Part shown: in pieces, positions 42,084 through 45,100 of the stretch
Layout: each line of letters begins with the position of its first letter
Numbering within the stretch: the stretch's first letter is position 1
NCBI GenBank assembly: GCA_030390025.1
Contig: CM059432.1
Location: 39,992,001-40,056,000 of the forward strand
Reading direction: 5' to 3'
DNA from: Squalus acanthias
Taxonomy: Eukaryota
DNA length: 64,000 nt
Translations under genes and position numbers: made by a program
Notes under the pieces: model-generated
What the model saw: only the letters and a program-made list of their open reading frames with translations
Database searches by the model: none
Told to the model about the DNA's origin: nothing

Positions 42084-43904
42084 ATGGCGAGCCAGGTAGG
42101 AGCCCAGGCGAAAGCGTGTGATAAGGCAGACCGTGTTGCAGAGGAGGAATCCGCAATGGAGCGTAGGTTATCGACCTATGTGTGCGGAAAAGTAAATATC
42201 GCAAAAAAATGGGTGTGCGATATGTTAAAAGCCGAGCGCCCCCTAGATGCAGCTGCCCAGTGGACAGCAAGTAAAGAGTACAGGAGAGGTATTGAAAAGG
42301 CGGTCTGGCTCATGTGTTTGAAAAAGCAGGTTTTAATGTTAGACCGTGCTGTTGCAACACGAGCAGCCAAGATCAAACAGTTGACCCGAGAGCTGCAGGA
42401 AAAGACTGCAGCGGAGGAGAAAGTAATTGCGGCCCTCCAGGCAGTAAGCCAAGAGAGGGCACAGACGGCACGGGATCATCAGGCTGAGTTAGAGCGTATG
42501 AGGGCCCGGGCCGTTGAAGCTCAAAGGGAACACCAGGCAAAGTCAGAGCGCCTGGAAGACCGGATCGCTGAGCTCAAAAGTAACGCTAGGCACAGGATGG
42601 AACACCTGGAATACCAGGTCAGAGAGGCGAGAGGTAGTGAGGTTAGATTAATGGACAAGATTTCCAGCCTCACGCAAGAATTGAAAGAGCAGGAGGAGAA
42701 AGTAGGCGAAGTAAAAGCAGCATATAAGCTGGCTTGTGCCCAGGGGTTTGAAGACGCCGATCACGGCCCCTGTAGGCAAGAAATAGAAAGCTTGGGCATG
42801 GCCTTAGTAAGGGCGAAGGGCATGGTATGCCTCATTAGCCCGAAGACGGGCCAGTTGGATTTTACCGGCAACCCAAGCAGGGAAGTCCCACAAGCAGCTC
42901 CCAGAAAGGCACTGGTTAGGGAATCAGAGGTTTCACGACCGCTACCCATAGCCCCGAGTTTTCAGGAGGCCTGGCAGCAAGAGGGGGTGGAGGATGGAGC
43001 AATAGGGGAGACCCAGCAGGCCCTAGGGGATAGACCAGGTCCGGGACCAGTGTACCCCCTCAAACAACGGAGGTACGGCCCGCCAGCCGATGGCGAGGCC
43101 CTAGGGGCCATCCAGAACCAGTTTGTAGTGCCGCATGGTACCCAACAGCTCAGAGCCATGGTTGGACACATCCCTAAGCTCACAGTGAGGGGGGACCCCT
43201 CTCTACATTTCCGGGAGATAGAACAGGCAGCATGCGTTAATGACTGCGATGAGGCAGAACAAGCAAAAATGCTGCTGTTCTCTCTGGGTAGTGATCTCCT
43301 CCAAACCCTATCGGATGAGTGTAAGAAGGGACAGAAAGATTACGAGGAGTTAAGGGATGAGATATTGGAGGCCATGGGACTAAATGATGGGAGTCCGTTC
43401 GCCCGAGTGGAAAAAACGGTACAGCTCCCCGGGGAGTCCCCGCAGGCATTCGCAGACAGGCTGTGGCCAGTCTACCAGAGCGCGTGCTCGGGAACGCCAG
43501 TGCGGACGTTCCTAAACAGAGACCAATCGGCCCACTGGCTCCGTTGTCTCATGACAAACTGCCTGCCCCAAATCCGAGCCCAGGCTGCGGCCTGGTTTGA
43601 CCCCCGAAACCCCCAGACCACCGAAGAAACGGTGATCCGCCAGCTCACGGTAGCATTTAGAAATAATGGGAGGGGAATTGAGACGCCCCAGCCCAAAGGG
43701 AGAGTCCACGAGGTTAAACCTGGGGGCCAGAATAAGAAAGAGTGGCACCAGGAGGGAAACCGTCCCTCCCAGAATAAGTTAAACTGCTATGGCTGCGGGA
43801 AGGACGGCCACTGGCGCAAAGATTGCAAAAACCCCTGGAAGGACACCAAGGGAAAGAGCTCCACAGCTCCAGGCCCAAAGGTAGACACTGGGACCCCACA
43901 GTAG
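42084..43904 (+). CDS. gag: Gag polyprotein: long coiled coil, capsid-like region, CCHC zinc knuckle
   Basis: 606-aa ORF; E/K/R/Q/A-rich heptad region; MHR-like QLPGESPQAFADRL; CYGCGKDGHWRKDC; true start may be a later ATG. Confidence 0.9.
   Translation: MASQVGAQAKACDKADRVAEEESAMERRLSTYVCGKVNIAKKWVCDMLKAERPLDAAAQWTASKEYRRGIEKAVWLMCLKKQVLMLDRAVATRAAKIKQLTRELQEKTAAEEKVIAALQAVSQERAQTARDHQAELERMRARAVEAQREHQAKSERLEDRIAELKSNARHRMEHLEYQVREARGSEVRLMDKISSLTQELKEQEEKVGEVKAAYKLACAQGFEDADHGPCRQEIESLGMALVRAKGMVCLISPKTGQLDFTGNPSREVPQAAPRKALVRESEVSRPLPIAPSFQEAWQQEGVEDGAIGETQQALGDRPGPGPVYPLKQRRYGPPADGEALGAIQNQFVVPHGTQQLRAMVGHIPKLTVRGDPSLHFREIEQAACVNDCDEAEQAKMLLFSLGSDLLQTLSDECKKGQKDYEELRDEILEAMGLNDGSPFARVEKTVQLPGESPQAFADRLWPVYQSACSGTPVRTFLNRDQSAHWLRCLMTNCLPQIRAQAAAWFDPRNPQTTEETVIRQLTVAFRNNGRGIETPQPKGRVHEVKPGGQNKKEWHQEGNRPSQNKLNCYGCGKDGHWRKDCKNPWKDTKGKSSTAPGPKVDTGTPQ
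42085..42102 (+). promoter_or_regulatory. Primer-binding site, tRNA-Arg(ACG)-like
   Basis: TGGCGAGCCAGGTAGGAG vs TGGCGAGCCAGCCAGGAG (complement of the vertebrate tRNA-Arg-ACG 3' end as recalled), 4 nt after the LTR. Confidence 0.8.
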
Positions 43905-44008
43905 AGAGCGTTCTAGAAGCACTGCGGGTTCTCCTGACCAGTCCGGGGAAGGTAGCTACAGCCACTGGCGCATTGATCCCATCAGCCCCATACAACGCAG
44001 ACCTATGA

Positions 44009-45100
44009 CTAGAACCAGCGCAGCCTGTCCACCTGTGTTCCCCGGGATACGATGTTAAGAAGGGGGTGGAGAAAGTGCAGGGGAGATGTTTGGTGGACAC
44101 CGGAGCTGCCAGCACGGTGGTCCATTCAGAAGACCCGACCAATTCACCCAGGTCTAACGGGGTCCTATACAGTTTAATGGGATTCACAGGGAACAAGCAG
44201 GCTGGGGCAATGTCCAAACCTTTGGACATAGATTTAGGATCCCTCCATACCACGTGGGAGGGTAACCAAAAGGCCGGCAAGTTGGCCAAGCAGGGGGCCA
44301 GGGAAGGAGAGTTCTGGGATCCCCGTAAAGCAGGTCCGGTAGCCGCAATCCGGGGCAAGGGAGGCACACAGGAGGTAGCTTTGGCCCCGGACTTAAAGCA
44401 GGTCCAAGCCCAGGATCCCGTCCTTAAGGCCGTCCTGGTAAAGAGAGAGAATGGGGAGTCCCTAGAATGTCCGTTTGAGGCAATGGACAAGGTTTTAAAA
44501 CAGGTTAACTGGCAGGCTGCTAGCAGCATTAACCAGTGCAAACTGTTTAAACCTGACAAAGGGGAGGAGCCAGCAAGTCTCAGCTCACAGGCAACACACG
44601 CAGGTACAGTTGCGTGCGTTGGGGGAGGAGTCACCCAGGCCCCTGTTCAAACCACCCCCACTCTCTTCTGGGACTCAGGTGGGGAGGAGGAGGAGCCCGA
44701 ACCAGATAGCCCCGCCCCCGACCCAGGTTTTGGACCTGGAGGCGAGGACTCTCAGCCAACAGCAGCAGGCAGCGAGGGATTGCCTGTCCCCAGCTCAGAC
44801 TTGGGAGGGGAGGAGCCACGGGGGAAAAGCCCCCAGCCAGCGAGGACTGCGACCCACGGCAAAGGTCCACTTGCCAGGGTAGCCCCACCTATAGCACTTC
44901 CTAGGAAGTCCCCTCGGACACCCCAACCTAGGAAGGCATGGTCGCCGACTCTCCAGTTTAAAGGGGCGACCTCCCGAGCAAAAGTTAGGTTAAAAGACAC
45001 AGGTCCCCAGCCAACAGTCGCAGGCTGTGAAGGACCAGAAGTAAGGGTCCGTACAGCCACGCTGCAGGGAGCAGCCTGCCGCAGTCCTAACAGAGCTTAA
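44009..45100 (+). pseudogene. pol: Internally deleted pol: aspartic protease, RNase H C-terminus, integrase C-terminal remnant, Pro-rich tail
   Basis: CLVDTGAASTVV; GNQKAGKLAKQGA; LKQVQAQDPVL; INQCKLF; no YxDD, HHCC or DDE motifs. Confidence 0.82.

Follow-up and report, generated by a model that had tools for sequence, protein, structure and literature searches.

In gamma- and epsilonretroviruses (MoMLV, WDSV, SnRV, SSSV, ZFERV and RMEV), a stop in frame that lies between zinc knuckle and the DTG motif of the protease is read through to produce Gag-Pol, and the contexts reported for the gag-pro stop are UAGGGA, UAGGGC, UGAAGA, UGACGA and UGAAGU (PMC13517186). A different class, the type II sites, is defined by the hexanucleotide UGACUA or UGACGG at the stop; UGACUA has basal activity and needs 3' structure only conditionally, and in human genes UGACUAG allows at least about 1.3% readthrough (PMC13517186). 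The window analysed here is a stretch of 64,000 nucleotides from Squalus acanthias (assembly GCA_030390025.1, contig CM059432.1, positions 39,992,001 to 40,056,000, forward strand), which contains a defective endogenous provirus with a UGA-CUAG between gag and pol. Very probably, this is where gag meets pol in an endogenous element of lokiretrovirus-like type, in whose family Gag terminates at the UGA and Pol is obtained by readthrough.

The stop context is identical to that of the type II sites of alphaviruses, triatoviruses and mammalian UGA-CUAG genes, whose genomes are unrelated; in the window, the stop gates the pol of a retroelement. The gamma- and epsilonretroviral cases, by contrast, lack the UGACUA context, and MoMLV needs a pseudoknot, and none was detected at the junction in the window. 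The UAG-G context with pseudoknot (type III) of these viruses is likewise absent, the stop being UGA-CUAG. The fission-yeast Ty3/gypsy elements Tj1, Tosmo1-3 and Tcry1 also have gag-TGA-CT(A/G)-pol in one frame, with context-driven readthrough proposed, and the stop is reported as essential for Tj1 transposition (bioRxiv 2022.12.06.519325). Unlike the shark element, these are fungal and are described as carrying no more than Gag together with protease, reverse transcriptase and integrase, and the resemblance is probably convergent. VdLTRE5 provides a further UGA case (PMC3441728). In the accessible portions of the literature, the main text of the lokiretrovirus paper (PMC7947760) and the Odin paper (PMC9040795) do not mention stop codons, readthrough or frameshift, and a 2026 review of readthrough in animal viruses mentions neither lokiretroviruses nor a retroviral UGACUA case (PMC13517186). 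Nor was a statement on UGA-CUAG in lokiretroviruses or chondrichthyan elements found in the openly available papers, PMC12440569 and bioRxiv 2024.03.25.586437 included, a scope lying outside subscription papers, repeat databases and preprint supplements. Gag-pol readthrough itself is known, as is UGA-CU in fission-yeast Ty3 elements; its lokiretrovirus-type occurrence is apparently undescribed in these sources. The features around the junction are the following.

42084..43904, + strand: gag open reading frame (ORF) of the window copy, with an N-terminal coiled-coil-like region (by eye), a capsid-like region, a CCHC knuckle at 43785-43826 and a premature TAG at 43902-43904 (ORF and domain search)
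43885..43900, + strand: stretch with a frameshifting lesion, where every aligned contig has one base more than the window copy (the longer form makes up the whole depth in 4/4 runs)
43901..44005, + strand: C-terminal tail of the family Gag, in the -1 frame of the window copy; a brief helix-like segment of amphipathic character (by eye) precedes a part rich in Pro and Ala (50% identity over 30 amino acids of P0001, 584-613, and 24 amino acids of skate P0002, 554-577)
43979..43990, + strand: PSAP, a candidate late domain (sequence; also in the tail of P0001)
44006..44012, + strand: TGA-CTAG, where the family Gag stops; the context is of the type II readthrough class, and position -1 is A (translation; context class from PMC13517186)

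Three-frame translation of 43700-44270 bears out the core of the initial annotation, in that the TGA at 44006-44008, followed by CTAG, stands between gag and pol, with PSAP upstream and VDTGA downstream in its own frame. The -1 frame of the window copy reads VESVLEALRVLL...LIPSAPYNADL* and, past the TGA, LEPAQ...LVDTGA, all in one frame. This frame opens at 43778, after a TAA at 43775-43777, and not at 43823 as first read; the stretch originally delimited ended at 44065, which falls short of the protease motif, whose catalytic D lies at 44096, 29 codons 3' of the TGA. Past the stop, the pol frame is open to 45100. The TGACTAG at 44006-44012 contains the type II hexanucleotide. When the two strands of the window are taken together, 3 of 5561 stop triplets belong to a TGACTAG, and from the base composition of the element the probability of TGACTAG given a stop is ~0.0013.

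In the window copy itself the gag frame terminates earlier, at the TAG 43902-43904, which the initial annotation ascribed to a 1-nt indel or, alternatively, to an additional -1 frameshift. The comparison of further copies that it proposed was made by aligning contigs from four of 22 listed runs (four studies and four organism labels; the best-matching runs, X1-X4, lay outside the comparison) to 43600-44700; these are collapsed contigs, which drop rare variants, and their depths were not used as copy numbers. A form one base longer inside 43,885-43,900 is present in all eight covering contigs (2+1+3+2 per run), and one X14 contig joins this longer form to TGA-CTAG, with one other letter, its position unlisted, in 136. 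Seven of eight related full or C-terminal Gag proteins extend 58-68 residues beyond the zinc knuckle, and P0004 ends five residues after it. The -1 frame of the window copy matches the tails of P0001, P0002, P0006 and P0007 at E 8e-7 to 4e-4, and the matched segments of P0001 and skate P0002 fall inside their Gag ORFs; the matches to P0003 and P0009 are non-significant (E about 0.8), and P0008 has none among those listed. Because the contigs carry the longer form and related Gags run into the PSAP-frame tail, a family Gag that ends at TGA-CTAG, in frame with pol, is supported, as is the reading of the 43902 stop as a private one-base frameshift of the window copy, arising by mutation or assembly slip. 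The indel first suggested gains support in this way, and with Gag ending in frame with pol no -1 frameshift is needed.

Heptamers of slippery form, of which no canonical one was noticed at first, do occur in the gag frame. One is GGGAAAC at 43754, after which the -1 frame is closed by a stop at 43775; two more are found at 43850 and 43874. Since the latter two lie inside the overlap of 43778-43901, they would suit a double recoding in which Gag truly terminates at 43902 and a programmed -1 frameshift gives entry to the PSAP frame, with readthrough to follow. Both of them, however, end in G, and a final G is unfavourable in a slippery heptamer. The longer form in every contig covering the lesion, together with the relatives' Gag tails in the main frame, led to rejection of the frameshift, and double recoding is highly improbable. 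The lesion at 43,885-43,900 could also be an assembly error and not a mutation, an explanation that would concern the window copy alone, is compatible with a family Gag ending at the TGA and has somewhat less than an even chance of being correct. It is favoured by the position of the lesion at a short single-base run and by the shorter form being found in 0/4 runs; on the other side stand further decay in the copy (a premature env stop and 1.7% divergence between its repeats) and the consideration that a single-locus variant would drop out of collapsed contigs, X1-X4 being outside the comparison.

That the UGA is followed by in-frame synthesis of Pol is indicated by several observations. The 40 variant rows listed include changes in neighbouring codons and no substitution at 44006-44012; an X16 contig, divergent and with another tail, aligns from 44005 on, directly 5' of the stop. 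In other family copies the upstream and downstream ORFs share one frame and are split solely by the stop, an arrangement that holds in the window copy only from the lesion onward. In the pol ORF the DTG precedes the first AUG, which is codon 57, and 43701-44100 contains no splice acceptor of the pyrimidine-rich kind. In-frame readthrough of UGA-CUAG as the route to Pol is well supported by the sequence and by analogy; the proposal of the initial annotation fits both the arrangement and the lokiretrovirus parallel described below, and the readthrough itself is what we infer from them. If the gag-TGA-pol junction is real and Pol nonetheless comes from a spliced or separately initiated RNA, in a foamy- or copia-like manner, the CTAG would be incidental. 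Such an RNA would agree with the lack of a detectable stimulatory structure, and Tca2 offers a precedent of non-canonical bypass (PMC2194720). It is improbable in view of the missing AUG 5' of the DTG, the absence of an acceptor-like site near the junction, the chance of about 0.001 for the context and the same hexamer in seven published lokiretroviruses.

The parallel with lokiretroviruses is drawn from junctions read by eye in the accessible part of the supplement of PMC7947760, in which 24 entries have a pol gene. Seven of these 24 show gag-TGA-CTA(G/A)-pol in frame, with TGA-CTAG in Ofa, Cne, Pyo and Sau and TGA-CTAA in Bsp, Dcl and Lro. A separately annotated gag is present in seven entries, six of which end in TGA-CTAG (Ofa, Pyo, Sau) or TGA-CTAA (Bsp, Dcl, Lro); the seventh, Tfu, has X-L-S in the protein at the junction site, and the Cne junction is likewise TGA-CTAG. 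Sequence homologous to pol continues stop-free and in frame after the TGA in all seven TGA-CTA(G/A) entries, including Bsp, whose pol is annotated as starting in a different frame but whose homologous stretch keeps the TGA frame. The junction count leaves out Aro, Lch and Ape, which begin at pol, as well as Bpe, Lca and Rca. Raw counts in the supplement (17 'tgactag' and 20 'tgactaa') are mostly off-junction, and only occurrences positioned at the junction were counted.

Several points weigh against the readthrough reading. For ten of the 24 lokiretrovirus entries the annotation gives a single ORF, so not every member of the group has the signal; the sole single-ORF junction inspected, apparently that of Pfl by file position, has CGA-CTAA at the site. 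The shark-type junction cannot be aligned by sequence to the teleost junctions, and homology is not established. The distant relatives of the window family, P0002-P0009, were compared as proteins, and of the listed contigs that cross the lesion the three long ones extend just 16-21 letters to its right. Beyond the 40 variant rows listed, the alignment has 99 more, in which stop-context variants are possible, and it also includes 594 unlisted pieces. Folding of the RNA 3' of the stop, also proposed at the outset, gave no stimulatory structure beyond shuffles (z +0.37 for 44006-44135; best z -1.9 of 24 windows folded), the fold model being one that does not cover pseudoknots and long-range pairing. 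Finally, the UGA junction of Tca2 alone gave no readthrough in yeast (PMC2194720).

Under readthrough, Gag would be translated through the capsid and the zinc knuckle into the Pro-rich tail and would end at the UGA. The CUAG that follows would weaken termination, so that a few percent of ribosomes might accept a near-cognate tRNA, add its amino acid and go on in frame to the protease and the rest of Pol. The outcome would be a high Gag:Gag-Pol ratio without a frameshift. The non-autonomous sub-family of the window copy has lost most of pol and retained the junction, and on the simplest reading its signal may have been inherited from an autonomous parent.

The provirus spans 41068-49066 in the order LTR-gag-(gutted pol)-env-LTR (LTR, long terminal repeat), with these further features.

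41064..41067, no strand: 4-bp target-site duplication GTCC, with the second copy at 49067-49070 (sequence)
41068..42080, + strand: 5' LTR (TG...CA), 97.8% identical to the 3' LTR
42085..42102, + strand: primer-binding-site-like sequence, which we take to be of tRNA-Arg type, four nucleotides after the LTR and overlapping the first in-frame gag ATG (42084) (sequence)
44009..44260, + strand: N-terminal part of an aspartic protease (DTG 44096), ended by an internal deletion (match to residues 2-53 of the full Pol P0012)
44255..44505, + strand: C-terminal end of RNase H and the linker before integrase, without reverse transcriptase, tether or the greater part of RNase H; the limits are approximate (match to P0012 753-820, P0011, P0013 and P0014)
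44528..45100, + strand: probable C-terminal end of integrase (from visual comparison with P0012) and an extended tail rich in Pro and Glu, with zinc finger and catalytic core missing
45355..47703, + strand: env, with a signal-peptide-like start, a weak Ig-like domain, an RQRR site and an F-type fusion-protein-like part, interrupted by an in-frame stop at 45814-45816 (ORF and comparison)
48042..48050, + strand: polypurine tract (sequence)
48051..49066, + strand: 3' LTR (sequence)

The LTRs differ at 17 of 1014 aligned bases (1.7%), 15 of them transitions; the 97.8% identity comes from a separate comparison. The relative P0012 is a full-length Pol with protease, reverse transcriptase, tether, RNase H and integrase, and the pol ORF of the window matches it only at 2-53 and 753-820 (46% and 36% identity over 52 and 73 amino acids). 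The element thus has no reverse transcriptase and no integrase core, lacks the bulk of RNase H and the last part of the protease, and is non-autonomous; with pol gutted in this way, a point that the initial annotation does not make, readthrough in the window copy cannot give a working protease, reverse transcriptase or integrase. Judged by its sequence, the element is young, non-autonomous, retrovirus-like and defective. Both internal pol deletions preserve the frame, and a 363-codon ORF remains (44009-45100). Near-identical contigs span both deletion junctions, one from X14 (44137-44312) the first and one from X16 (44432-44700) the second, and the deleted form of pol is therefore common to copies beyond that of the window. 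P0010 has a similar deletion from protease to RNase H, with another breakpoint.

Searches for related sequences gave little. No longer Pol relative of the protease part was found at E<=0.001 among 24 candidates, which is weak evidence, and the 64 kb contain no second copy of the internal region. A metagenome search with the Gag alignment returned 65 pattern matches and no confirmed one, and a viral contig search with P0012 returned no match. A scan for the stop context plus a protease pattern yielded 120 loci, none of which (0/120) matched the element proteins by tblastn; these loci were treated as chance. Two peculiarities concern the start of gag. The ATG at 42084 overlaps the primer-binding site, and the next ATG, at 42156, corresponds to the start of P0006; near 42450-42560, an 18-residue segment of the N-terminal region lacks a counterpart in P0001 and resembles a tandem duplication in the coiled-coil.

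Like the lokiretroviruses (Wang & Han, PMC7947760), the element carries gag, pol and env between two LTRs in the order LTR-gag-pol-env-LTR, and its Env appears F-protein-like, with a basic cleavage site. It is unlike them in the CCHC knuckle of its Gag and the weak Ig-like N-terminal domain of its Env, and with the reverse transcriptase deleted the window copy cannot test membership. For comparison, the Gag of zebrafish Bik-1 is described as having a Gly-rich patch instead of a CCHC knuckle (bioRxiv 2024.03.25.586437). The RNase H remnant and published lokiretrovirus Pol have in common a GN-x-x-A-x-x-LAK-x-GA-x-x-G-x-x-W end and a DL...Q..DP linker (by eye; PMC7947760), and a tether plus second RNase H is present in P0012, the only full-length Pol relative found, and deleted in the window copy. 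The element is accordingly termed lokiretrovirus-like, and membership proper is probable. A rival placement regards it as an env-bearing Ty3/gypsy element (errantivirus-like) or as a separate lineage, with a UGA-CUAG convergent with the teleost cases. The Atlas look-alikes of the capsid region are Ty3/gypsy-type Gag clusters, F-type env is widespread in Ty3/gypsy elements (bioRxiv 2023.10.26.564294), UGA-CU also occurs in their fission-yeast members (bioRxiv 2022.12.06.519325), and the reverse transcriptase of P0012 is about equally near those of gammaretrovirus, Ty3 and foamy virus (257, 254 and 240 bits). The tether and second RNase H of P0012 and the motifs shared with lokiretrovirus Pol oppose this placement, which is unlikely though still appreciable.

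Among the Atlas look-alikes of Env, at 0.93-0.95, are clusters of Fusion_gly as well as of Baculo_F and Gypsy env; Env has no Pfam match to the Fusion_gly family PF00523 and no PDB sequence match, and the structural model (predicted local distance difference test, pLDDT, 34) is unusable. A splice-acceptor-like pyrimidine tract and AG (45337-45338) lie 5' of the gene, and at the premature stop 45814-45816 the skate relative has a sense codon. The Ig-like domain in the N-terminus (45355-46100) is weak (Pfam Ig_3 at E 0.0025, which does not reach the curated threshold); it precedes a Thr/Pro-rich linker and the F-like part, and this N-terminal region recurs in the skate relative P0016. Joined to an F-type fusogen, such a domain could be a candidate attachment module. 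Named relatives of the family come from skate (Gag, Env) and sawshark (Env), which makes a cartilaginous fish the probable host group. The Env pieces P0016-P0018 sit in sawshark gene models named cadherin-related and Niban-like, which are probably annotation chimeras. The primer-binding site first hinted at an SnRV-like identity. That identity was set aside, as the SnRV context is UAGGGC (PMC13517186) and the Env look-alikes here are F-type.

The PSAP tetrapeptide was first read as a TSG101-recruiting late domain and as a sign of an enveloped, budding particle. The motif is exact, lies past the zinc knuckle, is kept in the close family (P0001) and shows only synonymous change among the variant rows listed; when the 37-residue tail was shuffled 100,000 times, P[ST]AP arose in 1.1% of cases. 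Late domains follow the nucleocapsid in lentiviruses, and P(T/S)AP has precedents in FIV, MLV, PFV and M-PMV (PMC8402826). A working TSG101-binding domain placed like that of lentiviral p6/p2 must, however, be weighed against the tails of the other six of seven relatives that have one (skate P0002, P0006 and P0007, and P0003, P0008 and P0009), all of which lack it. Loose contig ends (by eye) also suggest two related variants without PSAP (X14 at 43983, X16 at 44005), the sole 'psap' match in the accessible lokiretrovirus supplement is in a non-Loki integrase (PMC7947760), and the tail is rich in Pro, Ala and Ser. PSAP may be a plausible late domain of one sub-family, tentatively so and at rather less than an even chance, and not a feature of the lineage. 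The enveloped ancestor is better supported by the env gene than by PSAP.

Outside the provirus, a near-perfect 127-bp inverted repeat (99%, no spacer) at 51503-51756 represents a hairpin-type duplication or an assembly artefact. Minus-strand tRNA-Lys(CTT) (37698-37770) and tRNA-Thr(AGT) (38899-38973) are genes or tRNA-like copies. ORF fragments at 39625-40017 and 49033-51181, presumably CR1- and RTE-like, resemble reverse transcriptases of long interspersed nuclear elements, and one lies directly 3' of the provirus.

The route to Pol is a basic family character of a retroelement, and surprise at the present case is limited by a mechanism that is already known. The gag-TGA-pol junction accounts for the way in which automatic annotation splits gag from pol and starts pol at TTG or CTG. 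On a broader and more speculative view, which is possible but doubtful, lokiretroviruses, the sister lineage of retroviruses, would reach cartilaginous fish and much of the lineage would use alphavirus-style UGA-CUA(R) readthrough inherited from the shark/skate-teleost ancestor; in addition, a non-autonomous, multi-species family would keep the leaky stop and an open 363-codon, enzyme-dead pol for an extended-Gag role. Lokiretroviruses were found in none of the six chondrichthyan genomes screened in the accessible text of PMC7947760, and a chondrichthyan family, if true, would fill this host gap. The UGA-CUA(R) parallel further suggests how the little-studied lokiretrovirus lineage may make its enzymes.

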